The notes beneath the pieces are model-generated. The model did not search any database and had not been told where the DNA came from. It saw only the letters and a list, made by a program, of their open reading frames with translations. A DNA stretch of 64,000 bases, taken from IMG/VR virus record IMGVR_UViG_3300007513_000028, positions 5,674 to 69,673 of that record. The stretch is one strand, 5' to 3'. Source of the stretch: a virus. The position numbers and the translations under genes are program-made. Shown here piece by piece: positions 12,110-63,762 of this stretch. Within the stretch, counting starts at the first letter, position 1. Every line of letters starts with the position of its first letter.

Positions 12110-12118
12110 ATAATGTAT

Positions 12119-38100: not shown

Positions 38101-40838
38101 CGGTCGGCGGCGCATGGACAAAAGTTTACTTTAATATGTCATCTCTCCCTGAGTGGAATGACAGAACAATAACAGAAGTTCAACTTACTCCTTATTATAC
38201 TCTTGATACAGGTGACAAGTATCGAGTTGCAAATGTAACCATTTCAGCTTCGACAGTACCAGAAAGAAAAGAAATAGATGCATTAATGTTGAGTCCTGTT
38301 ATTCATTATGGTAATCAGGATGTATTCTGGGATGGATTCCAACTTGAAGATGTCACAGGAACAGACAGAAGAACACCAGGGCCTTTCCAATCACCAGATG
38401 ATGCAGGCCAAATTGATTTCTCTCGCGCAATTGCAGACGGCAAGACAGTCTACTTTGTCAGCAACGCATTCCACACCTCTGGTGATGACCATGCATATGG
38501 TCCGAACCCATCAACGACCGACAATGGCTTGACAAACCCAGAACCATACGGAGACAAGTGGATTAGTCTTTCGCCTCCATACAAGACCTATCTGTATTTC
38601 TCTAATGCAACAAATAAGATTGCACAGACAGCCTTCCATACGCCTACCACCTATGCCATTGCCAATTATGCAAACACGAACTGGCCCTTCGGAACGTCAA
38701 ATAATTCTACGGGTTGGTACGAATATCGAGACACAGGTGATGCTCTTTCCCAAGAAGGTCTGCAAGTCAAACTTCACATGGATTCTATTTTTCGAGTTCC
38801 AATTGGCGAGGCAATATGGACCGAAAACTCACTCACAAATCTCATTAATTCTCTTATTACACTTCGAGAAGACCATAATCAAGAGGCACCATATCTCGAT
38901 CTCGGAGACATCACAGCATTCGGAGAGACAAGAGAACTTTTCCTGAATTCTGTTCCGCCAAGAGATGCAAACCTTATGGGTCATTGGACATTCAATTCAT
39001 TTGGTGTGGATGACAATGGTGTACGATACCTTCCTGACGCGACTGGCCGAGGAAACCATGCACGGGTTGTCGGATATACTGCAAATCAGGCTGCATTCTC
39101 TGAACACGCACCCGGCGAAGGATTTGTGAATGTCTCTGGAAATCTTTCTTTGAATAATTTTTCAGGAACTATTGATACAGTACCTTCCAAAGAAGACGAC
39201 GGTCATATTGTTATTGCACAACATGGAGACAATTCTGTCACAAATCTACAGATTGATGGGCAACCTTATACTGCATTGAATATTGCAGACACGGCAACGT
39301 TCAATAAGGGGACGTTCTGTTTCTGGGTCAAGCCAGGAACACAAATTCAATCTGGCGGCTCCGGCGGCCATGGGATTTTTGGAAGACACCTTGCTGGTTG
39401 GGGAAGTTTGCGTATCGTTACCCAAGATTCTGGTGCCGCGCAACCCGATGCAAACAATGAGGTTTCTCTCGATTGGTTTTATCCTTCTCAATGGGACGAC
39501 CCTGCTAGTAATTGGGCAGGCCTGGCGTTAGCCAATCCCGATTCAAGTGATGCTGATTGGGTTCATCCTCCTGTTAATAATATAAATCGAGGATTTAAAC
39601 AGGATGAATGGCATTTTGTTGCATGGCAATGGGACTTTGATTCGACAGTAAGTGGAGAAAAGTATACGCGACTTTGGATATATCGTGATGGTGCAGGATT
39701 ATTGTATAATGGCTTAAAGACTGCAAATGATGATATGACCGCAAGCTATGATGCTGTTGAGTATATGGGGCTGGGAGACAGCTATGCATTGGTTCTGGGG
39801 GCCATGGGAACTGAGGTCAGCGTTGCCGAAGGCGGCCCGCTCGGAACAGAAGCCATGAGGTCTGGAAATCCCCGCGCAGTCGGGAACTACGACGAAGCCC
39901 GATTGTATTCAGAGGTTCTGTCTGCAAGAAATCTCCGATGGCTCTTTGAGACTCCTTCTGGGCGACCCGTTGCTGCTCCGAATCGACCTGGGATTGGTGT
40001 CAAGAAGGGGTATATTAATTTCTTTGAGAGTCCACCTACTGGTACTAATATGCCGTTTGCAGTATACACAAACAGCGTGGCATATTTCCACGGATTTGAC
40101 GTAGACGGAAACCCAGCCGATGTGAAACCATACATTTCGTTTAATGGAAATGTCAAGTATTTGGAAAAGGGGCATCTAAAGGTTGGAATTAGTTCTGAGG
40201 AAGCCGCCAGAGCGGTTCAAGGAAATACTGGATATGTAATGTATAATGATACTGCATATGTTGATGGTTATGATTCTACGGGCTCCTTTCCCTATCTCGA
40301 CCCAGATTCAAATTATGTTTTTGCAATGCCCATTGGAGCAAATTCAACACAACCTCACACATGGAAGTATCAACAGTTTTGGAACCTCCTCCCGGCAAGT
40401 CAGGAAAAACCAGGCTGGGAATATTTTACACCAAACGATAATAAAGATTTGGTTGTGGGTGAAATGAGACTTGCAAATTCTTCTGAAACAGGACTCCCCA
40501 CCGACGACCCGGCAGACAAGTGGCTCCAAATAGAATCCATCGAAGCCTATCAGATGGCTCGGAAACCGAGTGTGGTCCGAGAAGCCTACAACTTCAACAT
40601 CAGACCGGAAGATTTTGAAACTTTCCAAGACAACCACTTCTTTGCAAATGCACAATTCTGGACAACAGACAAGATGCACGGAACATACATTGCAGATGCA
40701 AGCATTGCAAATGCACAAATTCAATCATTGGCAGCCGACAAGATTGAGGCAGGTGTGATCGAAGCCAAGGTCACAGTCGGCGGAGAAGCCTCCATTGTCA
40801 TTGATGGTGTGAACAATCGAATCATTGTCAAAGATTAA
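23199..40838 (+). CDS. Giant (5879 aa) modular tail-fibre/adhesin protein
   Basis: Uninterrupted 17.6-kb ORF. It has an N-terminal RVGIGT.AP..KLHV.G fibre motif, repeated GD.W scaffold modules, jelly-roll and LamG-like passengers, and a C-terminal YIADASIANAQIQSLAADKI motif. Confidence 0.85.
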   Translation: MPKFDSPINIKTLKSRSSNSALVHLGDDNRVGIGTEAPETKLHVDGAITATGLVVPAGILSTSVDTAEFWGFNPKFDTWYFDELNFPVANGYIQTSGTDKVEKSSDSVLGSYSARWAQSIGSVWEREVEFPEPLYANVFVQGTYSYKFEYYGSGEPGLAITLTHREKANSDLSSVVGKTWASEYSNTFISPTFPLHTLGSWQTAAWRAHTPPNREITKLKIEIIASSALGQTYDSADAGIELSGGAGTATSIGGDDDYDWYLDGLAFNFMHPDARIDQEGRITGAYIAYAAIDDAHIKNMISSPAARVIAPASHPTSAGLYVDGLVANDDYAAGWSISKDGTIKGTDIKIYGPDGKVKISGSGINPFAEWAGRSLADLDSSASSYLYGLAFEESNSTGLMANVGFLATSGTDSDAIVSSAQSLYIANTVDGTASIGSALANGTIQYNGIASNAPPGSIFTGGKNVVKNQDAYILFLANTQKWDSDIGAQQKYHANTLLGEYGLYVLGTPTVGGWVYHPHANDTWYSIDSLQSGNRLHEDDFLVVGKIKTDISGNILSGVLQPPKSPDSITAPEALTSAPAINIPVGGILFADIHLNQWNHTANSGEVQLTNSRNNPNTEFTFIHPGTNDPNDSTLHTVNGAYGVLTSLEDFPGTRYITFVGADRTDEQVAAGTPSSRFTLQTGHSPDFVAAFPLGTPPRWYYNQDEGKFSTFTPTDRDCIVARVDANGSVGALTNIYRYAEREATTPEGGVISDVIINPPLGMASGGTLFADLHVNKEFKQSDNTTPANTGFVALVNTENNPRNRFFVIHPDNGYFWEVANTGRGVVTNLNNGVRTGGSNTGTRHIAFVGGTWPHEENRFPMAAGYENVSNDFIAVTKYHPDTGKIHPTSGVWYYDNGQNATTTFTVNANDFIIATLSSFNAQTDGIDQVTRWSGRAAQIEINGEMVTVDSIRNDLLGGIAHVLDYAETAANTAMDQAILAYDLAANASANATKSLGLLDNQNVIYFTEEGSAAPTSGTYGNAQSDVAWTYNDIWINTSIYGRHLDGSWSTNAIFRYANSGGGFDDSSATETSSGSTVGLAWRSDRTNPTGRAYIVGLEGRDLADRAQINFYVPRSAEVYPFYGPNVAVLSTGELNRNPEGDQWYDIFGNPPENHLYIYRTNTAFSNNSHYKVSTEDGFVSAAHKGYISTGLGAWAQTVHNTATSGLWDETTKPTGWWDFQDGAAGDATGLVDSERNARIAADQIIDDSAANALSRAADAQAAADREILAFFEIGAPTATSNGDVWIKTDTAIDSTGTKNLNSIFVSNTTSGIPGIGAGSDLFWNYGPNNAIGLMYLESYSSGVSGVFDRGTNIMPRGYSLFDAPLSDYDISLDPTQTNLPYPFFLVSHSSLSGTPKDTVISINTTSGWVGTNSLEVSGNSEVWARFTRQGLWTRGSYNYPAVHLPRGKKWILSWYAKSNNALQTRIAPALGLRDKDSPSANIVTVFNSTNGKGRLSANNEWERMWVYFDLTGANATHTDLDITEYDSELYGRGLVDGISSLAPADPSHILVGTGDSTPWSKPYAANLNSMMIRLDAVAVDSSGVKAGSTHNVHAWFDALQLEEVPDNVYAPSQFKEPSDGTAIVFGRKITDGKIVTHYYDSRDNGGQHGPIPNTTPTGLPNPQPHGDFWIDTGNNNIIFRYHQNDFNAIPTAQNIFWTSVTNGDGWYTTEDLRTGNALSTSYDALANAASARAAADREIFAFFETGSLNNSSPPVASGNGDIWIDTDSFATLNTSSIYVARAPGSGAWEQSPDSAIGQVYLEAWTAGETASRADSLAISAFGTSDLPFPVYPEANGIMGVGATGNVVFYKNSTQEFEPGTSTSAEGEFSAYNRGGVDFVGPTGKLWYPESGGYGIPETGAIHTRLEGAGGTGETTEARYIMYTNQSASVRFSSPAGMGSHDHFITVEWEPVSESWQAYDNSTGVFKFTPDAANGDFLVGKITRPTAVPEGIKTLESWVFKTLPVQTQNFTDGKIVTHFGTHYTVSGPDKGTWGPIPNTTPTGLANPQPHGDFWIDTSNNNIVFRYHQNDIDAAVPSAQVAFHYAATSASPDGWYSTEDLRTGNALSTSYSAVQAAATAQAAADREIQVFFDPSTTNSIPNASGNGDVWIQTDLAIKADGSANTGAIYRANTQNTGAHYIDLGANYMPRAYTTFEYPEDQYRRDSVSVKYPISEIDNYYGAPSWTGNISIDTTHSKFGGASIRHRMREESLHYHGFALGANWPPGTHPGADTEAQLNSYGGIKIPKGKKWIFSYWTYTDSDWYSSASDPFDGQEVSIWLRNTETPTANLASVRYARANITAKNKWERQSAVLDLRYTSTIPGEGLQVPTNLHGTGLPNFTLLSTVYTAEGTASGGAAATPIAWNDVDEIVPRLTIADGVSSSSSVRTSIHSGNTIWYDGFMLEEDTSGTNANTPSDDVHYWHPAPNNGIGTTYLLGYANNDYTRALADGKIVNHYGPNYGSNPYFGPDPEFTPKDRLDNPSPHGDRWVNTSNNNIEFVYNQNNSNYTAQTIVWHPGSPFTFNELSDRSAWYSTEDDRVANALASSYNANAAALAAQGRADDAYSSAAVAQAAADREILAFFALLSNVPAASGNGDIWVVTDYPVNLDGTPNVASLYISNTLSTSPPAIQDSVTATQYWNPAPENAIGLSYLESFAAGVSGAYQRGDNIISRGYSTFDDPADYDIFRGHEPGVGKVSRTGQEPYPMTVEGGGGIAENGLANVTIDTTRSPSEIPGGNSLRIRSPLTPSGLEVTFANVNYYDDTTSAAHNGTWAIKIPTGRRWVFSYYVSGDNDTLATGAHNPYIIQLNLKDTQNPNANVAYLRSNEAKSIHPDIDEANVWVRRSTVIDFTDTEHDMGWKDGDVPWAPAGGNGKGHYHPTLGYDAPGNGWLVYGAGPDVGDAPYEPLYAANVDSMVIHLGPRWGEQAEGFRRAVGNTMWFSGFQLEEVASDIVTPSEFKRPTDRTDIIFGRQITDGKILTRYETHYPDDLSGTHWGPNPTITPKQGLPNPEPHGDSWHNTSNNNLIFRYHQNTSDNSAQTMFWTASTDPEAPSGWYSTEDPRTIIGVNANTTAHEALANAATAQAAADREIQSFFAVHTPAQTASGNGDVWIQIDNVLKSDGTANTGSIFVWNDAIPEWQQRPESAIGRGFLKTFTEGIGSNWMSKAFSTFDEDPNDYNHQITYLNRPDRNTAGANPDWHNEHPGAPYQFYGWQHNTHTTNTTYGYGDSGSLVVTTNNVLGGTFGSEDDPWTDWYESHLYIGAGTFDHPVYFTDPYNYIRVPKGKKWIYSFYIRTDFATPTTAPGGKFYLQDFIVRNSENKKANAVYMNSFEMAPVGTGAVPSRWIPVTDAAASGWERVSGVLDLSSESFVVGSQIDKDNHTAAGIFEDNGATAAKIKYNEVDELRFHSYTGSLVGNTIWISAAQLEEVAGERINPSPFQEPSSKSQLDFARAIADGKIVTHYEPNSGNPNYLGPDPSTFPKSGEPNVTPFGDLWVDVANNNIVFRYHQNTSNYTSRKVYHANTAPHNHADESGWYSTEDLRTPDAAAIIGDDSTPGTLVYDTQKALADAAKAATAADAELFVFFETSSNTDMIDDRFGYGSSTGPATGNGDIWIHTDFATNPDGTPNNQAIYFANLSTDAAGPGVVRIGTTGWTQSPDNAIGRGFIEQFASVGVKNWMHSGYSLFDEPIDDYDIPDTSSGTRAYGGFTTRPWPMGRVHNASLLEIDTSGGANAYIGSTSLKYTHGASGGGQESTVGLANTYNPVSLGPWPAKYAIEIPKGKRWIFSSYAKSNDASAEFRLRVYGANISHRTTFVGTYDANGVSLGTSGAYKTVSAADTWDRISGVLDLSTSTNDLDQIDQLVIVLNTKHSTTQVRENWFDAIQLEEAPGARILPGQFSDPDRQISDDFARALSDGKILTHYEPAIDNLKAWWMMDAANTSGWIANEVNPGTYDAVWTENATQNTFVGDTIFGAGKSADLLNTAGIGLLEDDDVNTLNETTYTIWFKPTGQNQDTGARIITRDVSSFWGLYFSGNWSASAQTGDVLPVIFNIASSVSDTMSAGVKFGVWNFFAITLDYNTKVAKSYSYNEIDGFVVESPSLTIPSTATPSNDPDLTDEGSPFHIRSVKLGINSESPAAKIIENPTSRIHGRYDHVRFYDKVLSKPDIDAIFNIRTRTRKQPDAELYPYWYSNNVVYGPDPEFTPQKRLPNPAPHGDYWYDSSDFNRPFRYNQNTSNKVAQTAYYSTIAYQEEKLGYEPSGWFTTGDGTAEISADSIGDVGRDVAESLENIRRLNPLVDHEIKIFFETEGTTHFANALGTHTTAAYGDIWINTSDYNANGYTGGLVSNAIFRWQNSLGLSTDDTRTEASSGATQGLAWRSAEDDAFGQIYLSASYASNAADRLVAVYSGSGTAEASAWYGPNVAFTMTGIRNPNPDGDLWYDTGNNNIAHVFNKVNGTWPEFAQTVHSDASSMVSEGWYRLEDLRAASADRAREIALATGTDRHAQIFTSTTAPTTSTGNGDIWVDTSDILNSDGTANYDAIYIANTKDPTSIPANDGRGWTVEPNSGLGRSHLERLMGESGRNWMPAAISLWNSPSVDYQILHASTTWHTNPLPPEPLHRFHSYVVLRTPRPHTYYNTSGGLSSTDGIAGVGNTARIEIISDTNVGPTGNSYISGKAFRTYTGNTIDSDGNSHETDYLLSWFANAAASEESAWESPAVIDIPRGRDWILSYYTKSYSYPAISPAGNRTGELRVYAKKKYDDDGSANTWHTARDGGLGFDVSAPPYPTQGEWVRRHSFLNFSRDGQEGGRYGTNYSIKEGSEVYNGVFEGADGGLATVGATVDITNPEYVEYTAEADGFRPTHTLDSGDFAQFAGVDGGLVTANVQSVVDHNMPGVQSITFGRINWKTTVDTTMGGADGKQTDIRWSGTPAVGGAWTKVYFNMSSLPEWNDRTITEVQLTPYYTLDTGDKYRVANVTISASTVPERKEIDALMLSPVIHYGNQDVFWDGFQLEDVTGTDRRTPGPFQSPDDAGQIDFSRAIADGKTVYFVSNAFHTSGDDHAYGPNPSTTDNGLTNPEPYGDKWISLSPPYKTYLYFSNATNKIAQTAFHTPTTYAIANYANTNWPFGTSNNSTGWYEYRDTGDALSQEGLQVKLHMDSIFRVPIGEAIWTENSLTNLINSLITLREDHNQEAPYLDLGDITAFGETRELFLNSVPPRDANLMGHWTFNSFGVDDNGVRYLPDATGRGNHARVVGYTANQAAFSEHAPGEGFVNVSGNLSLNNFSGTIDTVPSKEDDGHIVIAQHGDNSVTNLQIDGQPYTALNIADTATFNKGTFCFWVKPGTQIQSGGSGGHGIFGRHLAGWGSLRIVTQDSGAAQPDANNEVSLDWFYPSQWDDPASNWAGLALANPDSSDADWVHPPVNNINRGFKQDEWHFVAWQWDFDSTVSGEKYTRLWIYRDGAGLLYNGLKTANDDMTASYDAVEYMGLGDSYALVLGAMGTEVSVAEGGPLGTEAMRSGNPRAVGNYDEARLYSEVLSARNLRWLFETPSGRPVAAPNRPGIGVKKGYINFFESPPTGTNMPFAVYTNSVAYFHGFDVDGNPADVKPYISFNGNVKYLEKGHLKVGISSEEAARAVQGNTGYVMYNDTAYVDGYDSTGSFPYLDPDSNYVFAMPIGANSTQPHTWKYQQFWNLLPASQEKPGWEYFTPNDNKDLVVGEMRLANSSETGLPTDDPADKWLQIESIEAYQMARKPSVVREAYNFNIRPEDFETFQDNHFFANAQFWTTDKMHGTYIADASIANAQIQSLAADKIEAGVIEAKVTVGGEASIVIDGVNNRIIVKD
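26190..38750 (+). repeat. Alternating internal scaffold repeats A (AADREI.AFF..GNGD.W) and B (DGKI.THY..P.PHGD.W..NNNI.FRY.QN..GWY.TEDLR)
   Basis: A-type near 26991, 28407, 29568, 31038, 32574, 34044, 36204 and 36813. B-type near 28092, 29232, 30660, 32235, 33678, 35055 and 38436. Confidence 0.9.
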
Positions 40839-40858: not shown

Positions 40859-43585
40859 ATGGCAGACAGAGTATTACTTGGAAAGAATACAAATACCGGG
40901 GAGGTAGGGCTTTGGGTTTCAAAACCCGGAGCCAATGTTATTCATTTGGCCGGAAATTCCTATATGGAATCCCTTGGAAATTGGTATGGGTATCAGAAAG
41001 AATTTGATGATTCTCCTGAGACTGCATGGACATTTTATACTTCGGGAACAGGGGATGATGGAATGACTGATGTGGGGGTCAATGGATATGCATATGACCC
41101 AGGAGATCCTGTTGGCCATTCCAACTCTCTCCGCTGGCGATGGCGTTCAGTAAGTCATGCTACTGCAAATACAAGAGTTCCACAAATAAAAAGAAGTAAA
41201 AACAATACGTTTTTAGTATCTCCAACCGGATACAGTACACGATTATATACAGAAGATTTATTTATTCAAGATACTGCTCCGTCAAGTTTATCTGGATTAG
41301 GTTATTTTGCTGGCCCTGATTCTTTTTCAGGAACAGTTCATAATGTAATTGAAATGAAAATTAGAAGAAATATGAATCACCCAGCCCCGCCGCCGTCAAA
41401 TACAAGCGATTTTAGATTTTATTTTATATCCACTCCAGTAGCAGGATGCCCGGTGACGGGAGGGTCTACTCCGCTTGCCACATTTGCAAACAATGTTGTT
41501 GGGTCCGATGGGAGTGTCTACGGTCATCCTGTTTTTTGGGCTCGAAAAAATGGCGGGGTAACTACTCAACAAAAAAATAATTATTCTGGATTTCAATTTG
41601 AATATCCTACGGGCGTCTATGCCGACACATATAATACTGGGGGAATTTGGTTTGTAGAGGCAGGCGTCACTAGCCCAGACGGAACCGGCCAAGGTATTGT
41701 TTACCCGACAGGAAAGTCATCTTCCGCAGAAAATAAATGGGATACTTTGCTTCCAGATGGGGAATGGCATATTTTAGAATGGGATATGAGTGAAGATAAA
41801 ATATGGTCTGACCCATACGGGCACATGGAAGATTGGATAGAGACAGCAAAAGCATATAATGCAGATACTTCTCCTACTGGAATAAGGCGAGAAAATCCAG
41901 AAGTTCCATATAATGAACCGCATTTAAATGATGGCCGCCGACCTTACTCTTCTGACTATAATATATCTCGGCTGATGTTTCTTCCTTTGTCGGGTATTAC
42001 TTGGAACCCAGATTGGGCAGCCTTGGACGAAGACCCAGCCAACCCTCCTTGGTTATTTGAAATTGATTATGTCCGCGTCAAAAAAAAGGGAGTTCCAAAT
42101 GATGTAGGAAAATATGGAAGCGTAAAAGATTCCTTGGTATTTTCCTCTGATTGGCAAGAAACTGGCCTTGTGCATCAGGAAGGAACCGTGACCATTGGCA
42201 CCCAAAAGGCAAACATTGACGGGACCACATCTCCAAAAAGTTTTGATAAAGCTGACCACACATCCACTCTTTCTAATGGGCTAATTACCTTTCCAAAACT
42301 TCCATACATACCTGTTGTATTATTTCAAAGATATGATGCAGCATCTGGCGGCGGAGAGACTGCAAATTCATATCCAGGGGGCGAGCAAGAATTTTCCATT
42401 GCAACAACCAAATGGGAAGACCATTTATATCCAACCATAAGCACAGACCCAAGAGGAGTTAACAAAGGTTGGGATATTAATTTGAAAACAGCGTCTGGAG
42501 TTACAGCCCAGCCCTGGTGGGGGACAATAAGTCAATTTCTTCCCTCTGAGTTCGGCGGCATCGGAGCCCCCCTCGACATTACAGATTATTCACATTACAA
42601 TCAATATGCAGACGATGGTTCTGAGATTTTTCCTTCTGTAACAGAATCTCTTCCGTGGAACGATACGCCAATCCCTGCTCCTTCTTATCGCGCCGGAAAT
42701 ACTTTTTCTTCTGACCATGCATTTTATTTTTCGGAAATGCGAACGTTTGCATATGCGCGGGCAGGAAAAGATCGTTTTTATTTGACTTGTAGAAATGCAA
42801 TTGCCCAAGAGGGCACCGAATCTTTATGGAATTTATCTCCGACACTCCCCGAAGCGGCAACAGCAAACCAAGGGGCGGCCGCATTCAATAGTTCATCCAT
42901 GAGGGAGTCATATGGAAATTGGGGAATGTTTCATCCTGCGCTTATTCTGTTTAATACTGATGGCACATGGAAACATTTTTCTGAGGGCCTGACATTAAAA
43001 CCGAGTGTCACAGACACTAATGCAAATACTTTTTTGATAGACCTAGAGGGGACCGAGGCTGGAACTGATTATTCTCAATTTAAATGGTGGTTAAATTATT
43101 CGGGGTATCCTTTTGTGTATGATGGAAGTATTGCAAGACCGTCCGACCCGATACCGACAGACAAAGCAGCATTTAAAGACAGGGCTGCCAATGGATCATA
43201 CTATGGAGATACTGGAGGATTTTATCCATATAGATACCATAAACTGCCAAGCGAGGTGGAGTTTTCAGGGCAACTTTCCTTGTCTCAATACTCAGTCAAA
43301 CGGCTGTCCTCTCCTGGGATATTTCATCCAGAAGGAGTGGTTCCAAAAAGCAGCCCGGCATTTAATAACAGAAATGCCGCCGATGGCCTGACTCTGCATG
43401 ATCCAATATACAACCAAACAAGTTATATTGGGGGATCTGGGAACAAGGTGTCAATTGGTGGGGCTGGTGATGCCTTTCCCACCTTTGATCCCGCCAATGC
43501 AAATCCTCCAGTATACAAATATTGGGTTTTGCGAATTCCGGCATCAATTCAAGGATATACTCCCAATGAGAGTCAGGGAGGATAA
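40859..43585 (+). CDS. Putative fibre-tip/adaptor protein 1 (DRVLLGK family)
   Basis: MADRVLLGK...GLWVSKPGANV, paralogous to the next two genes; GGAG Shine-Dalgarno. Confidence 0.7.
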   Translation: MADRVLLGKNTNTGEVGLWVSKPGANVIHLAGNSYMESLGNWYGYQKEFDDSPETAWTFYTSGTGDDGMTDVGVNGYAYDPGDPVGHSNSLRWRWRSVSHATANTRVPQIKRSKNNTFLVSPTGYSTRLYTEDLFIQDTAPSSLSGLGYFAGPDSFSGTVHNVIEMKIRRNMNHPAPPPSNTSDFRFYFISTPVAGCPVTGGSTPLATFANNVVGSDGSVYGHPVFWARKNGGVTTQQKNNYSGFQFEYPTGVYADTYNTGGIWFVEAGVTSPDGTGQGIVYPTGKSSSAENKWDTLLPDGEWHILEWDMSEDKIWSDPYGHMEDWIETAKAYNADTSPTGIRRENPEVPYNEPHLNDGRRPYSSDYNISRLMFLPLSGITWNPDWAALDEDPANPPWLFEIDYVRVKKKGVPNDVGKYGSVKDSLVFSSDWQETGLVHQEGTVTIGTQKANIDGTTSPKSFDKADHTSTLSNGLITFPKLPYIPVVLFQRYDAASGGGETANSYPGGEQEFSIATTKWEDHLYPTISTDPRGVNKGWDINLKTASGVTAQPWWGTISQFLPSEFGGIGAPLDITDYSHYNQYADDGSEIFPSVTESLPWNDTPIPAPSYRAGNTFSSDHAFYFSEMRTFAYARAGKDRFYLTCRNAIAQEGTESLWNLSPTLPEAATANQGAAAFNSSSMRESYGNWGMFHPALILFNTDGTWKHFSEGLTLKPSVTDTNANTFLIDLEGTEAGTDYSQFKWWLNYSGYPFVYDGSIARPSDPIPTDKAAFKDRAANGSYYGDTGGFYPYRYHKLPSEVEFSGQLSLSQYSVKRLSSPGIFHPEGVVPKSSPAFNNRNAADGLTLHDPIYNQTSYIGGSGNKVSIGGAGDAFPTFDPANANPPVYKYWVLRIPASIQGYTPNESQGG

Positions 43586-43591
43586 TCTCAC

Positions 43592-44914
43592 ATGGACAGA
43601 GTCCTCCTGGGAAAAAATTTGACAATGGAATATGAATACGGTTATCGAGAAGAATTTACTCCTACGGGATCAGGAACCTCAAGTTTTGAAATGTATGATC
43701 CCGGAGTTGGTGATGCAAGCTCACTTACCAATTACGGCCCAGGGTTTTTATCGTGGACGACCGGAGCAAAGTTTAAAAGAAGTGGAACAGATACTTTATT
43801 ATATACTGGAAACTATGGTGGGTTAATTTTTTCTACCCCTGCCTTTGTTGACCCACAGTCTGTACCTTGGGGGTCTGCTCCATCTTCTGATGCAATTAAT
43901 CCAAACCTATATCCAATTGTTGAAATGCGACTTCGACGACTTCAGACTTCTGGAAATTATCCAGCCGATGCCGCCGGAGGATTCAAATGTTTTTTTGTTG
44001 CAAAAAATCAAAACCAGACGGGTTTCTCCACAGGCTCTCCGACATTTTATGTTCAATGGAATTGGCCTGTTCATCTTTCTTCGGTCGATGACGATTATTC
44101 CACATATAATTCAACTTCGGTTAATTGGAAGACGGTTTTCCCTGACTCAGAGGTGGCTGCCGGACCAAGTGATTATAAAATTTTGAGATGGGATATGGAT
44201 AAAAATTCTAATATAACAAAAAATTGGAATGCATTGGGGAACAATAGTAGAGTCATTGTGGTACGGTTTGATTTTCATACATCCGGCGCAACAGGATCTG
44301 GTTGGGTTCCAGAAAGCGAACCCATGTGGGAAATTGATTATGTCGGGGCCAGGGCGCGAGAATATTTGAATTTTAGTAAATATTTTTATAGGTCGGGCAA
44401 GACTGGGCTTTTTATTTCAAAACCCGGAGCCAATGTCATGTCATGTTCTGATGGAGATTTAATTTTTGATTCTAGTGCAGATGCATACATGCAGACACTT
44501 CAGACAGGATTTGTCAATGTTCCCCCCGCGCCCGACAGAAATACACCCAAAACAGTTGCAGTTCATACAGGAGTAAGAACTCCGGGAAATACCGGAACAG
44601 CCGTGGTTCATTGGAACGTCATGCTGCCATCATCAAACGTTCATGATAAATTTTTTTCATCTAGTTATGGCACCGCCTCGTCGGAGTGTCAGGTCGTGAC
44701 TAATAATCCATTTGTGAATTTAGATTATATTAATTTAGAAGGCCCATTAAAAACTGGATTGGTTCCTGGGTTTGGTCTTTCGGCGCGAACCTCTGCAAAT
44801 ACCGATAACCATCCAGGCTCTGCAAATACTATTGATATATACTTTACCAATGGTTCTCCAAATAAGAATCAACTTTTGGCTTGGACATTATTCAAAGAGA
44901 GGGGTGACACCTAA
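43592..44914 (+). CDS. Putative fibre-tip/adaptor protein 2 (DRVLLGK family)
   Basis: MDRVLLGK, then an insert, then GLFISKPGANV..LIFDSS; GGAGG Shine-Dalgarno. Confidence 0.7.
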   Translation: MDRVLLGKNLTMEYEYGYREEFTPTGSGTSSFEMYDPGVGDASSLTNYGPGFLSWTTGAKFKRSGTDTLLYTGNYGGLIFSTPAFVDPQSVPWGSAPSSDAINPNLYPIVEMRLRRLQTSGNYPADAAGGFKCFFVAKNQNQTGFSTGSPTFYVQWNWPVHLSSVDDDYSTYNSTSVNWKTVFPDSEVAAGPSDYKILRWDMDKNSNITKNWNALGNNSRVIVVRFDFHTSGATGSGWVPESEPMWEIDYVGARAREYLNFSKYFYRSGKTGLFISKPGANVMSCSDGDLIFDSSADAYMQTLQTGFVNVPPAPDRNTPKTVAVHTGVRTPGNTGTAVVHWNVMLPSSNVHDKFFSSSYGTASSECQVVTNNPFVNLDYINLEGPLKTGLVPGFGLSARTSANTDNHPGSANTIDIYFTNGSPNKNQLLAWTLFKERGDT

Positions 44915-44920
44915 AAAATT

Positions 44921-47900
44921 ATGGATAGAGTTATCTTAGGGAAACATGCAAATACTCTTCTCAATGAAGTTGGGCTTTATGTATCAAAACCGGGAGCAAA
45001 TGTTCTAGATCCACAGACATATCTTGATGGCAATTTGATGTTTTCATCGACAGATGCAAGTTCTTTGAATATAATCCAATCGGGGGCATTTAAGATAACC
45101 TGTGAGCGAGAGCCTGTGGCTTTGTCTGGGACTACGCCATCTGTTGGAACTCATAATTTAGAAAGAATATTTCAAATATCATTAAAAGATATTTTTGGAA
45201 GCGGGGGAAATCATTGCCCATGCCCACCAGCCATCGAGGGATTTGCCCACACGACCGCAACTGCGGCTGGCAGAAGAAAAGATAGGTTTATCTGGGCAAC
45301 ACATTACAGGGCGGTGGGGACTCCTGAACAAAAACAGGCAGCAGTAGATTTTGGTCTGGCCCAAAGTCCCCCCATTACCATACCGTATGACACCTGGGCA
45401 GACAATAGGGATGATGCACAAAGGGCTTTGAGAGATGCAACTGGCCTGTGGAGTTTTTATATGGATGTTGCCGGAGCAGAATCCAATCTTCCTATAAATT
45501 ATAATAATCCTCATTATCCCGGTGCCGGACATTGCAAAACTGTTTTTTCTGAAACACGACATGATTATGGAGGGGCAGGAAATCCAACATCCATCCCTTC
45601 TGGATATATATCAACCTCCCCGGTTTATGATAGCGAATGGATATGGGACGGGGATGTTGCATACAATCCCATTAATGGTTCGTTTGTGGGCGCCGGGCCC
45701 TGGGGAGACTCTCGGCTCGATGAAGGCACCCAAGAATTTTCTAACTATGAAGCGGGTGGGAGTTGGGCGCAGCAGACAGACCTTGTTGTTCGCTCTTGTG
45801 TTGTAACTGACGGAGCGCATGGAGGCGATCCAGTCCAACCCGATCCCGCGCTCATGGGCGGCGTTCCTAGTGACCTAAAGGTTGGAGCAATGCTAAGAAT
45901 GCCAGAATCAAGTTGGGGCTTCGGTTCGGAAAGCCTTCCGTTTAGCACAGATCCGTTCGACCAGCGTTATGGCGAATGGGGTGACTGGGACCATCCAAAC
46001 ACCAATTTTGCCCGCGCAGCAGATTTTTGGATGGCGGTTATTCCATATGTACAGGTGCCCTATACGGACATATGGGGAGATCCCAATCATCCTCTGAGTG
46101 GCTACTACGGCCCGGACTGGCAAGTCACGGACCCAAATTGGAGTCCAGTTGTCACGATGACTCCGCAAATGTGGATGCTAAATCCAGCCATGCCCGGAAG
46201 TGCTGCCATTCACGAACTCAATGAAGAATATAAGGAATTTGGGGCAACGGTGACGACAGTAACAAACCTTGGAATTGGAATAGACGAGCATTTCTATCAT
46301 GATTCTGAACGACCAACAAACCTTTCTGCAATGACCTGGGGCGGTTGGTATAGTTCAAAGGAAGACGTTATGGAAGGAAATTATATAGACAGAGGAAATG
46401 TTACAATTCCTATTATTAATCCGCTGCCCGATGGAGAAATTCCAGAAGTTGCAATTCGTTTTGCAGTCGGGTCTTCAGGAAAAGATGGAAAACAGGTAAG
46501 ATTTCATCCCTGGTATGCAAATGTTGCAACAACCCCAACATCCGATTGGGCCCCAGACTGGGACGACTTTACATATACAAATGAAGATGAAATTGTCCAC
46601 ATGGACAGCCCTTGGGTACGATTTAAATGGGGAGGAATTGGAAGTAATCTTTATAGTGGAGTGTCTCTTCATGAAAATGCTAGAGAGGCGTGGGAGGCAA
46701 TATGGACTCCAGAAGAACTTGATGCGCTTGAATCTTTGGGTGTTGCGCTTCCAGGGGTGAATCCAGTAGGCACTCCCAAATCCCGTAAATTATGGGAAAG
46801 CGCATTGGGCCATTCTGTGGGAGTTTCTGGTCTTTTTCATTTTTCCAATTCAACTCATCTTTCTGTAGAAGCACATATGACTCCCACACACACAGGCTTG
46901 CGAAGACCTGTTGTTTTTTCGCCACTTGACCACGCAGCCTGGGATTCGCGAAGGAATGCCCTAGAAGATTATGCCGCAATAAAGCGCAAAACTCCTTCTG
47001 CGGGAGACGGATACACGGGCTGGCCGCGTTCGTATACAAACTTAGAATATCTTCCTGCAACAACCCATGATAGATTTGGTTCTGGTGCGATTGGCGGCAT
47101 AGGCACGGCAGCGCCCCAACTGAATGGAACAGATTCTTTGTATGGTTGGCTCGGTCATCCATTACAATATTTTTCAAATCCATTTTCAAATACCATGTGT
47201 ACATTTTATACACATATGCAGCCCCCGTTTATAGACCAATATGACCCCGCCACCTATCCTCTCCATTATCATGGAAGGCAATGGGCACTAGAAATCGACC
47301 AAGTAAATCTAGGCGAGACTTATCATACAGATTCTTTGGGAGTTTCTCATCGAATTCCTGTATGGGGTCCAGATATTCCAGGAATTTCTTCACAGGCAGA
47401 TAGTGATGAATGGTGGGTGCTGGGCGGCTTTTTGTCCGAAGGAGAGGGAATTCAGTGGCCACCAGGGCATGAGTTTGGAAATTGGAGTGATGATGTAGCT
47501 TGGCAGGGTAGTATGGGGATGGGAGGGGCTGGCCCTGCAAGAACTTTGGGCCTTTCTGAGGGTGATTCTAATTGTTGGGATACTTATTATTGTTCGTATG
47601 TGATATATTCACACGGAAGAAAACCAGATGTGTCGGCTCAACAATCAAATACCATTACTGTGAGCGCCCGCTCCTCTACTCTTGCCGGGGGAAATATGAT
47701 AAACCCATTGAAGTACAGGGGGGATGCAGACGATGATGATATGAGATATTTTAATTTGAATTTTCCTGATGATTTTGTAGGAACTCCCGGCGATCCTGCA
47801 ACAGACCCATTTCATAATCACAGAGATGAATCTGGAAGAATATATGGAAGTCTGAATATTATTTTTGAAATTCCTGAATATGATACCCCCGGAGTTGATC

Positions 47901-49060
47901 CAATGTATATTGGTTCGGAGGAGTTTGAACAGTTTTTTATGAAAACCGGATCTGGCCTTTCTGATTTTAAACTTATGGGAAAACCAAAGCCAGCAATCAC
48001 CTTTGATCTTTCTGGTCGTAACTTTAATTTTATTAATAATCAAAATCTTAATTTGATTATCAAAAATCATGGAATTGTTCTGGGCGGTGGCGGGGCTGGT
48101 GGATATGGCGGCCATTATAATTATGACCTCAACCCCGGAGAAACTGTACCCGGAGGAAAAACTTCGGCAGGCGATGCTCCCTTAAAAATTGGCGGTGGTG
48201 GCGGCGGTGCCGGGGGCGGAAGTGGTCGTGGAAATAATCCTGCTGGCACTCTACATGATTCAAATTATTCCTATGCAGGAACAGGAAAGGCAGGCAGCGG
48301 ATATGGTCGTGCAATACTAATTGGCGGTTCATTAGACGAAACATGGAGCGCAGAAATGCAGGGCGAGACTGGTACGGATATTACATTGCACACATCAGCA
48401 AATCCAAGTTATAGAAATGTCTCTGGTGGGGCAGGAGGTCTTGCCGGAACTGTAGAAACAATAAATCGCGTGGACTCGCTTCAGCCCGATTATGGTTCTG
48501 ATGGAGGAGACTGTTTTTTTATTATTCATGACGAAACATATCTTCCTAACATAGAAATAATAAATATTGGTTCGGGTTCTAATTCTACACAAGTGAATGA
48601 TGCAATGATGCGTTCCGGTGGTGGTGGCGCAGGTGGTGGCGCAGGCGGAGAAATTGTAAATGAAGACCGACCGTCGGGAAAGGTCTTTGGGGCGACTGGC
48701 GCAGAGGCAGGATATAATGGAAATCCCGACACTTCGACCAGCGGAGAAAATAGTAGGTATCAGTGGCCTGGTGGGGCTGCGGGATATTTGGTGGGCGCAT
48801 ATGCAGACAGTCTCTTTGATGTTTTTGATGGAGAATATAATGTCGGCTGGCCTGAAGTTCCGCCGGGTGCCGTGACAACATACCCAGAAAATACAGAAGA
48901 AGGAATATATGACAAGGTTCGTGCGGCATACGCAGGAAAAATTACAGTAAGAAATGAAGCATCAACAGAAACAATTTATGCAAGACACCCCAACGGAGCC
49001 ACCACGCCGGGAACCGCCGGATGGTCCCTTGGAGTAGGTTCTTCTGAATATAAGAAATAA
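44921..49060 (+). CDS. Putative fibre-tip protein 3 (DRVILGK family) with C-terminal glycine-rich gp38-like adhesin domain
   Basis: MDRVILGK...GLYVSKPGANV..LMFSS; C-terminal LIIKNHGIVLGGGGAGG, GGGGGGAGGGSG and SGGGGAGGGAGG motifs. Confidence 0.7.
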   Translation: MDRVILGKHANTLLNEVGLYVSKPGANVLDPQTYLDGNLMFSSTDASSLNIIQSGAFKITCEREPVALSGTTPSVGTHNLERIFQISLKDIFGSGGNHCPCPPAIEGFAHTTATAAGRRKDRFIWATHYRAVGTPEQKQAAVDFGLAQSPPITIPYDTWADNRDDAQRALRDATGLWSFYMDVAGAESNLPINYNNPHYPGAGHCKTVFSETRHDYGGAGNPTSIPSGYISTSPVYDSEWIWDGDVAYNPINGSFVGAGPWGDSRLDEGTQEFSNYEAGGSWAQQTDLVVRSCVVTDGAHGGDPVQPDPALMGGVPSDLKVGAMLRMPESSWGFGSESLPFSTDPFDQRYGEWGDWDHPNTNFARAADFWMAVIPYVQVPYTDIWGDPNHPLSGYYGPDWQVTDPNWSPVVTMTPQMWMLNPAMPGSAAIHELNEEYKEFGATVTTVTNLGIGIDEHFYHDSERPTNLSAMTWGGWYSSKEDVMEGNYIDRGNVTIPIINPLPDGEIPEVAIRFAVGSSGKDGKQVRFHPWYANVATTPTSDWAPDWDDFTYTNEDEIVHMDSPWVRFKWGGIGSNLYSGVSLHENAREAWEAIWTPEELDALESLGVALPGVNPVGTPKSRKLWESALGHSVGVSGLFHFSNSTHLSVEAHMTPTHTGLRRPVVFSPLDHAAWDSRRNALEDYAAIKRKTPSAGDGYTGWPRSYTNLEYLPATTHDRFGSGAIGGIGTAAPQLNGTDSLYGWLGHPLQYFSNPFSNTMCTFYTHMQPPFIDQYDPATYPLHYHGRQWALEIDQVNLGETYHTDSLGVSHRIPVWGPDIPGISSQADSDEWWVLGGFLSEGEGIQWPPGHEFGNWSDDVAWQGSMGMGGAGPARTLGLSEGDSNCWDTYYCSYVIYSHGRKPDVSAQQSNTITVSARSSTLAGGNMINPLKYRGDADDDDMRYFNLNFPDDFVGTPGDPATDPFHNHRDESGRIYGSLNIIFEIPEYDTPGVDPMYIGSEEFEQFFMKTGSGLSDFKLMGKPKPAITFDLSGRNFNFINNQNLNLIIKNHGIVLGGGGAGGYGGHYNYDLNPGETVPGGKTSAGDAPLKIGGGGGGAGGGSGRGNNPAGTLHDSNYSYAGTGKAGSGYGRAILIGGSLDETWSAEMQGETGTDITLHTSANPSYRNVSGGAGGLAGTVETINRVDSLQPDYGSDGGDCFFIIHDETYLPNIEIINIGSGSNSTQVNDAMMRSGGGGAGGGAGGEIVNEDRPSGKVFGATGAEAGYNGNPDTSTSGENSRYQWPGGAAGYLVGAYADSLFDVFDGEYNVGWPEVPPGAVTTYPENTEEGIYDKVRAAYAGKITVRNEASTETIYARHPNGATTPGTAGWSLGVGSSEYKK

Positions 49061-57219: not shown

Positions 57220-57762
57220 ATGCCTTTTTCAATTAATAATTTCAGAGCCGAGCTTGTTGGCCAGGGTGCCCGACCCAATCTATATGAGGTCACGATTCCC
57301 TTTCCGGGTGCAGTAAATCCCGGCGAAGCGGGTCAGAAAATGACTTTTATGTGCAAGGGTGCCCAGATTCCCGGAGCAGACATCGGTCTTGTTGAAGTTC
57401 CCTACTTTGGTAGGAATATTAAGTTGGCAGGCAATCGAACGTTTGCCGAATGGACAACGACTGTCATTAATGACGAAGACTTTGCCATTCATGCCGGGCT
57501 TGTCAATTGGATGAATTCCATCCAGGGACATGGCGAAAACTTGAGGACTATTGCAGGAAATGATTATCAGGTTGATGCACAGGTGACGCATTACAAGAAA
57601 GAGGGTGAAGTTGCCAAAATGATTACCATGATTAATTGTTGGCCTTCCTCGGTTGCAGCCATTGAATTAGGATGGGATCAAAATGATGCAGTCGAAGAGT
57701 TTGCCGTCACATGGCAATATGATTACTGGCAGATTGCAGACGACAAGACACAAACAACCTAA
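57220..57762 (+). CDS. gp19: Tail tube protein gp19
   Basis: GARPNLYEV, VPYFGR.IKLAGNRTF.EW..TV.NDEDF and EEF.VTW.YDYW motifs. Confidence 0.96.
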   Translation: MPFSINNFRAELVGQGARPNLYEVTIPFPGAVNPGEAGQKMTFMCKGAQIPGADIGLVEVPYFGRNIKLAGNRTFAEWTTTVINDEDFAIHAGLVNWMNSIQGHGENLRTIAGNDYQVDAQVTHYKKEGEVAKMITMINCWPSSVAAIELGWDQNDAVEEFAVTWQYDYWQIADDKTQTT

Positions 57763-63258: not shown

Positions 63259-63762
63259 ATGGCAAAATCATTCAATTCACCAGACAACATCAACTACCTA
63301 TCTCCTGTAGGGTTTCGATTTTATATTGAAGTGCTTCCGAACACCAATTGGTTTCTGACTTCGGTAAACCTCCCCGGAATCACTCTTGGTGAAGCCCCCC
63401 AGCCTACCCCATTTCTTCAGACGGCAGTCCCCGGAGACACCCTTGTTTTTGACCCATTGAACATTCAGTTTCTTGTGGACGAAGACCTTCAGAATTGGAA
63501 GGAACTCTATGACTGGATGGCTGGCCTGGGATTCCCTCACGAATATCCAGAATATGACGCCCAAAAGGAAAAGCACATTTATTCAGATGCAACGCTCACC
63601 GTCCTGAATTCAAATATGAACCCCAATTATCAAATTATATTTAAAGACCTATTTCCAACTAATTTATCAGAAGTTTTATTTGATTCGGCATCTGCCGATA
63701 TTGAAGGAATCAAGGCATCGGCAACCTTCAGGTATCTGACATATACCTACGAAAAAATTTGA
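63259..63762 (+). CDS. gp3: Tail tube terminator / tail completion gp3-like
   Basis: NYLSPVGFRF, VNLPGI.LG, FLVDEDL.NW.EL..WM, YSDATL.VLNSN and F.DLFP..LS motifs; found after gp23 as in marine T4-like phages. Confidence 0.88.
   Translation: MAKSFNSPDNINYLSPVGFRFYIEVLPNTNWFLTSVNLPGITLGEAPQPTPFLQTAVPGDTLVFDPLNIQFLVDEDLQNWKELYDWMAGLGFPHEYPEYDAQKEKHIYSDATLTVLNSNMNPNYQIIFKDLFPTNLSEVLFDSASADIEGIKASATFRYLTYTYEKI

Follow-up and report, generated by a model that had tools for sequence, protein, structure and literature searches.

Three tandem paralogs behind a giant putative fibre gene share one beta scaffold and may form a heterotrimeric fibre-end cap

Introduction

The window analysed here comprises 64,000 nt of an uncultured T4-like phage (IMG/VR record IMGVR_UViG_3300007513_000028). 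Directly downstream of a giant gene, it contains three tandem genes with the same short motifs and long insertions at different positions. What are these proteins, and why do they lie behind this particular gene? Sequence comparison indicates that genes 1–3 are enlarged forms of a small set of three proteins that as yet has no name. Here, we describe their common scaffold, the inserts and the small homologues, and consider how the set might act at the end of a fibre. The features discussed are as follows.

23199..40838, + strand: giant protein, 5879 aa, read as the cap-bearing fibre; C-terminus like those of fibre genes preceding triads elsewhere
~40812-40835, + strand: predicted docking strand of the giant protein, within its last residues ...IVIDGVNNRIIVKD, like other fibre ends
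40859..43585, + strand: gene 1, putative p1-type cap paralog, 908 aa (HMM match in two pieces)
40859..40939, + strand: gene 1 head, strands b1-b2, residues 1-27 (DRVLLGK, GLWVSKPGANV; HMM)
40940..42130, + strand: insert A of gene 1 between strands b2 and b3, residues 28-424 (YGYQKEF ... EMKIRR ... ILEWDM ... EIDYV; hhalign with the gene 2 insert)
42131..42358, + strand: gene 1 scaffold resumption, residues 425-500 (SLVFSS, LVHQEG, LPYIPVVLFQRYD; HMM 30-80 against residues 423-500)
42359..43513, + strand: gene 1 second insert, ~residues 501-885, kept in gene 1 orthologues (alignment with P0014)
43514..43540, + strand: gene 1 closing strand YKYWVLRIP, matching PPTYKYWVLRVP of P0014
43592..44914, + strand: gene 2, putative p2-type cap paralog, 440 aa (HMM, family alignment A2)
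43619..44392, + strand: insert within the b1-b2 hairpin turn of gene 2 (residues 10-267), a homologue of insert A in gene 1 (hhalign)
44393..44911, + strand: gene 2 unbroken scaffold, residues 268-440 (GLFISKPGANV, LIFDSS, LQTG, AVVHWNVML, IDIYFTNGS, LLAWTLFKERG)
44921..49060, + strand: gene 3, putative third cap paralog, p3 type uncertain, 1379 aa (HMM, residues 1-73)
44921..45106, + strand: gene 3 unbroken head, residues 1-62 (motif positions)
45107..46438, + strand: gene 3 first insert, residues 63-506 (from the positions of FKITCE and IPEVAIRFAV in P0003, P0013 and P0015)
47585..47617, + strand: gene 3 probable closing strand YYCSYVIYSHG (FYVSYVVYSTG in P0013; YYCSYVIYGH in the second gene 3 ORF of locus L002)
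47618..49057, + strand: C-terminal extension of gene 3, containing runs rich in glycine (GGGGAGGYGG, GGGGGGAGGG, GGGGAGGGAGG; from sequence)

Results

A common scaffold interrupted at different points

The initial annotation had described tandem paralogs on one scaffold, with an insert of ~390 aa between GANV and LVFSS in gene 1, one of ~260 aa between RVLLGK and GLFISKPGANV in gene 2, and inserts that follow a contiguous head in gene 3. The open reading frames and their translations bear this out. In gene 1, DRVLLGK, GLWVSKPGANV and SLVFSS occupy residues 3–9, 17–27 and 425–430; 397 residues separate GANV from SLVFSS, with an insert of ~395 aa directly after GANV. The corresponding motifs of gene 2 (DRVLLGK, GLFISKPGANV, LIFDSS) lie at residues 2–8, 272–282 and 290–295, and an insert of ~258 aa directly follows RVLLGKN (255 aa after HMM position 8 by hmmalign). 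The head of gene 3 is unbroken over residues 2–55. A profile made by hmmbuild from alignment A8, with genes 1 and 3 left out, recovers gene 1 at E 1.2e-12 and gene 3 at E 1.7e-17, and gives E 1.4e-28 on gene 2. Gene 1 is matched in two pieces, HMM 1–27 falling on residues 1–29 and HMM 30–80 on the later piece listed above.

The kinship also extends to the nucleotides. As first reported, the 32-nt SKPGANV segment is identical at 29 of 32 positions between genes 1 and 2; the remaining two comparisons each give 27/32. When every ungapped 32-nt window of gene 1 is compared with every one of gene 2, 29 identities occur once and 23–28 in 25 pairs, presumably as overlapping windows of this one site, whereas background pairs go no higher than 22 (3 pairs). 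A search of the window and of the 69.7-kb record found no further copy of the head motif.

The initial list of scaffold motifs was incomplete. It missed later strands (LPYIPVVLFQRYD in gene 1, AVVHWNVML in gene 2, IPEVAIRFAV in gene 3) and C-terminal closing strands (YKYWVLRIP in gene 1, LLAWTLFKERG in gene 2). For gene 3, the closing strand is probably YYCSYVIYSHG, a choice made from the sequence and carrying no score. Since the scaffold includes these later and closing strands, genes 1 and 3 must each hold further large inserts. P0014, the source of the match to the gene 1 closing strand, is the gene 1 orthologue in L001 (BLASTP 2e-106). By eye, and without a score, YKYWVLRIP also resembles the ends of small p1 proteins as well as those of P0109 and P0137. 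Upstream ORFs in L002, L020 and L023 end in YRYWVLRIP or similar.

In an AF2 model of the minimal scaffold P0012, the head hairpin is confident (block-mean pLDDT 83–96, residues 1–60) and the closing strands reach 74–86. The scaffold part of gene 2 is modelled as all-beta, with block means of 58–87 except in a low stretch at ~347–392.

The inserts and the C-terminal extension

Homology between the inserts of genes 1 and 2 had been proposed from shared motifs. Pairwise BLASTP gives weak matches (E 0.014–0.016), whereas profile comparison (hhalign; gene 1 inserts of the window and L001 versus gene 2 inserts of the window and P0004) gives 98.4% probability and E 1e-14 over 252 collinear columns, from YGYQKEF to EIDYV. 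Judging from these alignments, a homologous domain is plugged into different loops of the two proteins. The b1–b2 turn is a recurrent insertion site, used in ~11 relatives; in P0005–P0011 and P0012, relatives with an unbroken head, the insertion point of gene 2 holds just 5–17 residues. The b2|b3 split is confined to gene 1 orthologues, and the gene 2 orthologues in L001 and L002 have no insert. Independent insertions in genes 1 and 2 would be the simplest reading; alternatively, the insert may have passed from one paralog to another.

Neither insert has a Pfam match (E<=1) or a PDB sequence match. The Atlas neighbours of gene 1 insert A are SGBP_B_XBD, CBM30 and galactose-binding-like clusters (0.88–0.91), and the nearest named neighbours of both inserts are CBM30, CBM27, SGBP_B_XBD and Exop_C, at scores (0.88–0.93) that arise by chance 4–10 times in 100. 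On the basis of these scores, the inserts are probably beta sandwiches of a glycan-binding type. Both end in EIDYV[RK]V, a strand typical of carbohydrate-binding or galactose-binding-like beta sandwiches. The AF2 model of the gene 2 insert has block-mean pLDDT mostly of 27–40, too low to serve as a model of its fold.

The stretch that matches the first insert of gene 3 is 129 residues long in L001 and 59 in L002. The C-terminal extension of gene 3 (480 aa) has no Pfam match, a weak match to PHROG 13336 (E 0.041) and no PDB sequence match. Its domain recurs behind a minimal scaffold in P0045, and behind a gene-2-type head in a 1444-aa protein of L022.

Small homologues and their gene order

Minimal homologues and their neighbourhoods, to which the initial annotation had looked for clarification, often take the form of small tandem triads behind fibre genes. 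Among 1,835,955,588 proteins, the scaffold profile finds 198 at E<=1e-3, 48 at E<=1e-10 and 18 at E<=1e-30. The family has no informative match in Pfam, PHROG, NCBIfam or PDB, and by sequence search appears to be unannotated so far. In 50 IMG/VR loci picked by motif pattern, we find three adjacent HMM matches in 24, two in 9 (5 of them cut by the locus end), one in 16 and none in 1. Three copies are thus not universal, given the 16 loci with a single match and the 4 uncut loci with two.

Triad members are 118–269 aa long and directly follow a large fibre gene ending ...NxRI[LIV]IxD. An upstream ORF ending in [RKN][ILVM]3xD is found in 22 of the 24 triad loci and in 28 of all 50, as compared with 29 such ends among the 1958 ORFs of these loci. 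Examples are NNRILISD, NKRILIAD and GKRIVIRD, the last being the fibre C-terminus of L001. L001 and L002, relatives of the window, share its gene order, upstream of gp13/14/15. In the window itself, the 5879-aa protein has no Pfam match and, among PHROGs, a weak one to the tail tip protein Tal (E 9.3e-4). Three genes of the family directly follow a gpJ-like fibre gene (phrog_31) in Brevundimonas phage MaInes and Rhizobium phage RHEph10, which makes the central fibre the partner there. Both are cultured siphophages. Fused two-copy proteins also occur (L015, P0137, P0140), and there are relatives with PD40 propellers.

Paralog type follows gene position. Position-specific HMMs, built with one locus left out at a time, assigned the right type to 60 of 69 small paralogs. 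For gene 1, the highest score comes from the p1 model (51.0 bits; p2 39.9, p3 39.0), and for gene 2 from p2 (54.1 bits; 32.3 and 34.2 for the others). Gene 3 scores 43.0 bits with p2, 37.3 with p3 and 36.4 with p1; its best model is not p3, which leaves its assignment as p3 uncertain. In a tree of 75 triad members, read without support values, positional clades are not united across subgroups.

A model of the fibre-end complex

For the small set of L048, a complex of p1, p2, p3 and three copies of the fibre's last 80 aa was modelled, with p2 as the partner. From our own shallow alignments (6–13 rows) and with six chains, an input that differs from the tool's calibration, the model passed with a score of 0.85 against 0.54 for the best control; 58 of 80 solved complexes attain this mark, as do 2 of 110 mismatched pairs. 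An unrelated protein in the place of p3 still gave 0.54. Runs share at least 85% of contacts, and the pLDDT of the partner is at least 84. In the model, fibre residues 74–78 contact p2 residues 5–9, strand b1 of p2 pairs with a C-terminal strand of the fibre, and p2 touches both p1 and p3. Residues 11–12 and 26–29 of p2, the counterparts of the two insertion points, do not appear in the confident contacts.

Discussion

The initial annotation suggested a heterotrimeric or interchangeable tip at the end of the giant fibre. The heterotrimer gains indirect support from position-specific triads behind like fibre ends and from the passed complex model, that is, from small homologues and prediction; an interchangeable tip may be the alternative. 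On balance, we think it somewhat probable that the three proteins form a heterotrimeric fibre-end cap, in which the conserved head serves as assembly core and the loops carry receptor-binding inserts. Genes 1, 2 and 3 would then be p1, p2 and p3 of a conserved, unnamed four-gene module: a trimeric tail fibre with chains ending ...NxRI[LIV]IxD and, behind it, three small paralogs of beta-sandwich type. A single copy of each paralog would join in a pseudo-threefold heterotrimer that surrounds the fibre's three C-terminal strands. In this arrangement, strand b1 (DRVLLGK) would pair with a fibre end, while b2 (GLxVSKPGANV, its hairpin partner) and the L.FDS...Q.G segment would contact the neighbouring paralogs, roles that would account for the conservation of precisely these motifs in genes 1, 2 and 3. 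In the uncultured T4-like myovirus, the scaffold would have turned into a display platform, with large inserts on surface loops: the homologous, probably glycan-binding sandwich in genes 1 and 2, the other inserts of genes 1 and 3, and the glycine-rich domain in gene 3. If so, the tip of the 5879-aa fibre would bear three different binding surfaces.

Known systems offer partial parallels. In mycobacteriophage Mysterious, according to a preprint, three consecutive genes of similar size (gp35, gp36, gp37) encode beta-sandwich proteins of ~205 aa with N-terminal beta-hairpin arms; they form heterotrimers whose N-terminal groove clamps a partner's peptide through beta-strand pairing, and six such heterotrimers encircle the baseplate, where a distal tail protein loop is what they clamp (PMC13252515). 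As described there, the strand-pairing logic is that of the L048 model, but the partner is a distal tail protein loop rather than, as we propose for the triad, a fibre C-terminus. Profile searches of PDB sequences gave no match and, within that scope, no sequence relation to the Mysterious proteins. In T2/S16-type phages, the gene for the gp38 adhesin follows that of the fibre; gp38, a protein of its own, caps the end of the trimeric long tail fibre, bears the receptor-binding surface, and has glycine-rich motifs with variable segments between them. These motifs are reminiscent of the C-terminal domain of gene 3, although that domain matches no solved chain, and gp38 is a single protein rather than three paralogs. 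Lambda-type gpJ (phrog_31) resembles the genes that precede the RHEph10 and MaInes triads. We know of no such triad in lambda, however, and the partner in the window, which lies in a T4-like baseplate/fibre module, has no gpJ match in Pfam or PHROGs.

It is also possible, though rather unlikely, that genes 1–3 encode three receptor-binding fibres or spikes that are independent of one another, each paralog being a homotrimer with the common head as adaptor, in equivalent or successive docking sites (for example, a fibre followed in series by trimers of p1, p2 and p3). Conserved N-terminal adaptors are known from multi-tailspike phages, and interchangeable receptor-binding proteins of phages are usually recognised by a conserved N-terminus joined to distal parts that vary. 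The fibre-like sizes and differing distal domains of genes 1–3 fit this picture, as do the two-copy fusions and the glycine-rich domain on another scaffold type in L022, which shows module exchange. Yet position-specific triads recur across distant phages, a pattern for which interchangeable units do not readily account; the small versions (118–150 aa) have no distal part to present; and in the complex model a single fibre end is surrounded by p1, p2 and p3 in one copy each.

Improbable, in our view, is a role as assembly factors outside the virion, with the small paralogs as chaperones for trimerisation of the fibre C-terminus and the large versions of the window as derived adhesin-chaperones. 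Fibre chaperones and tail fibre assembly proteins are typically encoded immediately downstream of the fibre gene, and the predicted contact with the last strand of the fibre would suit them equally well. Against this, Pfam, PHROGs and NCBIfam give no match to a tail-fibre-assembly family, three conserved paralogs exceed what known chaperone systems use, and the inserts of 250–800 aa in the window's versions, like the PD40 propellers of relatives, make sense for exposed virion proteins.

Finally, it is most improbable that the differing insert positions are an artefact, whether from mis-assembly, from a frameshift or because the N-terminus of gene 2 matches by chance, even though the b1 piece of gene 2 has just 9 residues: independent contigs contradict this, with P0004 (other contigs) sharing the gene 2 architecture at 72% identity, the order b1, insert, b2 recurring in P0023, P0027, P0018, P0025 and others, and the b2|b3 split repeated in gene 1 of L001, while synonymous differences among the three 5′ ends speak against recent copying.

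Genome context

The window, part of an IMG/VR record of 69,673 bases with a completeness estimate of 38%, constitutes a T4-like myovirus structural module. Homologues of gp48, gp53, gp5, gp25, gp6, gp7 and gp8 lie at 14-13878, and those of gp13, gp14, gp15, terminase, sheath, tube, portal, gp21, gp22 and gp23 follow from 50990 on. By major capsid protein, cyanophages and Methylophilales phage Melnitz are the nearest cultured phages, at only ~53% identity. From gp8 to gp13, the gene order is as follows.

13914-19940: 2008-aa protein, PHROG 358, with DUF4815
19970-22930: 986-aa protein, PHROG 358
23199-40838 (+): 5879-aa giant protein, read as a fibre; no Pfam match, single weak PHROG match
40859-43585 (+): gene 1, 908 aa
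43592-44914 (+): gene 2, 440 aa
44921-49060 (+): gene 3, 1379 aa

The gaps between the giant gene and gene 1, genes 1 and 2, and genes 2 and 3 are 20, 6 and 6 bases, respectively. Several features of this neighborhood deserve mention in their own right. The PHROG 358 pair looks split or duplicated. In the gp7-like baseplate wedge protein (6674-12109, 1811 aa), Pfam recognizes PD40 beta-propeller repeats (E 2.4e-38); domains of this kind are inserted in P0009, P0023 and P0014, relatives of genes 1 and 2. A second tail-tube-like gene (63259-63762, PHROG 45, E 5e-37) directly follows the major capsid gene, the first tube gene lying at 57220-57762. Finally, a small ORF at 50641-51030 matches PHROG 3304, "L-shaped tail fiber protein assembly" (E 3e-14), and may be a fibre chaperone gene near the triad formed by genes 1-3.

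One scaffold, interrupted at different points

The initial annotation had read genes 1-3 as copies of one scaffold interrupted at different points, and translations, motif positions and a profile HMM all bear this out. In gene 1, DRVLLGK occupies residues 3-9 and GLWVSKPGANV residues 17-27, with SLVFSS not reached until residues 425-430. The corresponding positions in gene 2 are 2-8 (DRVLLGK), 272-282 (GLFISKPGANV) and 290-295 (LIFDSS), while the entire head of gene 3 lies inside residues 2-55. An HMM of the scaffold, built from 109 family members (alignment A8) with genes 1 and 3 left out, matches gene 1 at E 1.2e-12, gene 2 at 1.4e-28 and gene 3 at 1.7e-17, and the head motifs (strand b1 [DN]R[VI]xLG, strand b2 GLxVSKPGx[ND]V, LxF[DS]S and Q.G) are present in all three. 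Gene 1 is cut in two by this HMM, positions 1-27 matching residues 1-29 and positions 30-80 matching residues 423-500. At the nucleotide level, the three 32-nt SKPGANV segments are identical at 29/32, 27/32 and 27/32 positions in pairwise comparison, against a background maximum of 22/32 for gene 1 versus gene 2. Genes 1 and 2 share 20 identical nucleotides here (40919-40938 and 44417-44436, TCAAAACCCGGAGCCAATGT, SKPGANV codons), the proteins being otherwise distant; codon-level constraint or a short gene-conversion tract could account for this identity.

Judged from the alignments, the scaffold is larger than its head. In relatives of gene 2 (alignment A2), the head is uninterrupted, and a beta core and the closing segment IDIxFxNGS...AWTLYxxKG are also present. 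Most of them carry an insert of 350-500 aa just before the closing segment, that of P0009 being a PD40 propeller (E 4.6e-20); gene 2 and its relative P0004 are without it and hold ~255 residues in the b1-b2 turn instead. The closing strands of gene 2 are placed by A2 and by the HMM, of which positions 2-124 cover residues 1-439. Those of genes 1 and 3 were placed by eye from orthologues, the HMM having no match to that part. Gene-1 orthologues end in PPxYKYWVLRIP, and gene-3 orthologues have in common IPEVAIRFAV and YYCSYVIYSHG-like strands; from these motifs, we infer that genes 1 and 3 hold further large inserts.

A natural minimal scaffold exists in P0012 (180 aa, locus L002). In its AF2 model, block-mean pLDDT is 83-96 over residues 1-60, which comprise the b1-b2 hairpin and head, and 74-86 over the closing strands; the mean is 64.7, with residues 72-146 below 50. 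The AF2 model of gene 2 has a mean pLDDT of 50.7, with the insert not folded.

Gene 3 additionally has a glycine-rich C-terminal extension of 480 aa. This domain recurs in P0045, where it follows a minimal scaffold, and in locus L022, where it is attached to a different scaffold type. In L022 (5746-14424), it is borne by a 1444-aa protein with a gene-2-type head, and the gene-3-type protein (1193 aa) has an insert of ~140 aa in the b1-b2 turn, an arrangement that is domain shuffling among paralogs. In L002 (1934-6419), the gene-3 orthologue is split into two overlapping ORFs of 782 and 755 aa, which may reflect a frameshift or sequencing error.

Inserts of genes 1 and 2

The homology earlier proposed for the inserts of genes 1 and 2 is upheld. 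BLASTP finds weak likeness between them, and two-sequence profiles give a collinear alignment of 252 columns that runs from YGYQKEF through to EIDYV, with 98.4% probability and E 1e-14. Insertion sites were surveyed in 260 family proteins and mapped by domain pieces, hmmalign having missed the gene-1 split. The b1-b2 turn contains inserts of at least 95 aa in ~11 of the 260 proteins, and these are of three or more sequence types; in 16 proteins, inserts of at least 30 aa occupy the loop that precedes the closing strands. A split between b2 and b3 occurs in the two gene-1 orthologues and in no other of these proteins. P0038, with its insert at a third site, may have an insert of the gene-1/2 type, although sequence comparison is only suggestive (profile probability 53% and E 1.3e-4 against gene 1, 10% against gene 2). 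The insert of P0023 and P0027 was also considered as a relative, at 2.6-9.4% probability, and is unsupported.

As for how the inserts came to occupy different loops, the b2-b3 insert is shared by the gene-1 orthologue of locus L001, and the b1-b2 insert is absent from the gene-2 orthologues of L001 and L002 and present in P0004. The gene-2 insert is 28% identical to the gene-1 insert of the window and 30% identical to that of L001; with values so nearly equal, it is no recent copy made within the genome. The two positions require either two insertions or one insertion and a later transfer between paralogs.

The insert has no Pfam match and no PDB profile match, and AF2 block-mean pLDDT within the gene-2 insert is mostly 27-40. 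In the Atlas, each insert independently falls near clusters of SGBP_B_XBD, CBM30, CBM27 and galactose-binding-like beta sandwiches (0.88-0.93). That the inserts may be glycan-binding beta sandwiches is thus a lead, not a result.

A family outside current libraries

Neither genes 1-3 nor ~20 relatives have an informative match in Pfam, PHROGs or NCBIfam; the exceptions are PD40 in P0009 and P0023, and two negligible PHROG matches. Nor do Pfam, PHROG and NCBIfam models of T4 gp9-gp12, gp34-gp37 or fibre assembly proteins match genes 1-3, unlike the neighboring gp5, 6, 7, 8, 13, 14, 15, 18, 19, 20 and 23, which are recognized in the window. PDB sequence searches with alignments A7, A4 and A13 and with the gene-3 C-terminus returned nothing meaningful. 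With AF2 models of gene 2 and P0012 as Foldseek queries, nothing in the PDB reached E<=0.001; the few tailspike C-terminal domains that came up, at E 0.24-1.4, were set aside. Against BFVD, the matches were solely uncharacterized small phage proteins (best E 1.4e-3).

Minimal homologues, sought together with their gene neighborhoods, do exist, and they can occur as three tandem paralogs after fibre genes. A profile search of 1.84 billion representatives recovered 198 proteins at E<=1e-3, of which 48 reach E<=1e-10 and 18 reach E<=1e-30, and many members are just 107-200 aa. No cultured phage was matched by the 8.2-kb region in megablast, or by P0001, P0002, P0109 or P0017 in tblastn; the small protein P0079, the sole query with a cultured match, hit 17 records of Rhizobium and Brevundimonas phages by tblastn. 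Related-locus searches with P0003 and P0079 found none. Two scaffold copies are fused in one polypeptide at L015 174-2046 and in P0137, P0140, P0056 and P0081.

Conserved synteny of the triad

Synteny is the key new fact about this family. In the siphophages MaInes (Brevundimonas) and RHEph10 (Rhizobium), three tandem paralogs of 118-164 aa directly follow the gpJ-like central fibre gene. The first of these in MaInes (L006 7001-7432, ON529866; 143 aa) is without annotation in the public record. A DNA pattern representing the b2 motif, scanned against IMG/VR, yielded 50 loci, which contain three adjacent HMM matches in 24 cases, two in 9 (5 of them cut by the locus end), one in 16 and none in 1. 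Three same-orientation tandem paralogs are seen in the window, in 24 of the 50 IMG/VR loci, and in L001, L006 and L007. In 22 of the 24 triad loci, the triad is immediately preceded by a large ORF (up to 3369 aa) whose product terminates in ...NNRILISD, NKRILIAD or alike. Such an ending, ...NxRI[LIV]IxD-like, is found in 29 of the 1958 ORFs of these loci, and directly upstream in 28 of the 50 loci. The giant protein of the window ends in NNRIIVKD, and the fibre of L001 in GKRIVIRD.

The paralogs also fall into types (p1, p2, p3) by gene position. When position HMMs were built with one locus left out at a time, 60 of 69 small paralogs were assigned to the position that they occupy. Gene 1 scores 51.0 bits with p1 versus 39.9 and 39.0 with p2 and p3, and gene 2 scores 54.1 bits with p2 versus 32.3 and 34.2 with p1 and p3; gene 3 scores higher with p2 (43.0) than with p3 (37.3). 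A FastTree phylogeny of 75 members shows positional clades inside subgroups, not across them.

Beside large triads, we also note a conserved ORF of ~160-177 aa (MR..ATKDHF...), located after gene 3 or between paralogs (L001 10031-10525, L002 6703-7188, L022 9332-9865).

A predicted complex and a model for the fibre tip

For the small set of locus L048, a complex was predicted from three copies of the fibre's 80 C-terminal residues plus p1, p2 and p3, each with a small alignment. The tool's verdict was "supports binding", with a score of 0.85 (runs 0.83, 0.88 and 0.85); the three controls reached 0.54 at best, in the one that had p3 replaced. In the tool's calibration, 58 of 80 solved complexes attain this mark, as do 2 of 110 mismatched pairs. 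The L048 job is unlike that calibration in having six chains and custom alignments, and it deals with distant small homologues in place of the window proteins. Contact agreement among runs was at least 85%, and the pLDDT of the partner (p2) was at least 84. In the best run, the terminal strand of the fibre (residues 74-78) contacts p2 residues 5-9, which are b1, while p2 residues 13-21 and 33-48 contact p1 and p3. Residues 11-12 and 26-29 of p2, equivalent to the insertion points of genes 2 and 1, are absent from the confident contacts. Sequence comparison turned up no solved complex of this kind, and recall by the predictor therefore seems unlikely.

A heterotrimeric tip docking on the fibre end, as suggested at the outset, is the best-supported explanation and probably correct; the case for it consists of synteny, positional orthology and one predicted complex of homologues. 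The part of the proposal that fits less well is gene 3, which matches p2 best and not p3. More tentatively, and with somewhat less confidence, we propose a widespread and so far overlooked tail module in which three ancient paralogs cap a homotrimeric fibre as a pseudo-threefold heterotrimer, their loops serving as sockets for inserts. The fibre would end in a short docking strand, and each of its chains would take one paralog. The resulting cap would break the symmetry of the fibre and place three different receptor-binding surfaces on one tip. Glycan-binding sandwiches and PD40 propellers may have been plugged repeatedly into its exposed loops, namely the b1-b2 turn, the b2-b3 connection and the loop that precedes the closing strands. 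In size, the paralogs of such modules would extend from the minimal 120 aa of siphophages to 440-1379 aa in marine T4-like phages, where they would sit on a fibre of 5879 aa.

No part of a phage genome is harder to predict than host recognition. If the model is true, a recurrent module of four genes, one for the fibre end and three for the paralogs, which no current family library annotates, would account for a block of "hypothetical proteins" that follows gpJ-like genes in cultured phages of Rhizobium and Brevundimonas, and giant fibre genes in uncultured marine T4-like phages. It would also provide a structural rationale for a symmetry-breaking tip, with three binding surfaces per trimeric fibre, and natural domain-insertion sockets of use for reading or re-targeting host range in phage-host pairs kept in the laboratory.

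T2-type fibres are capped by gp38 adhesins, which may be regarded as a functional analogue of the triad cap. The C-terminal domain of gene 3 has glycine runs, as in gp38-type polyglycine adhesins, and no sequence match in the PDB at E<=10. In the phage tail-fibre and baseplate literature, at the level of titles and listings and, for PMC13252515, of passages, we found no description of the triad module. The closest architecture described there is the gp35/36/37 heterotrimer of mycobacteriophage Mysterious. It consists of three consecutive beta-sandwich proteins whose N-terminal hairpin arms clamp a partner loop by strand pairing, and six copies are present on the distal tail protein (PMC13252515). 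The predicted L048 complex, three paralogs plus a partner strand (0.85 versus 0.54), may resemble this arrangement in architecture.
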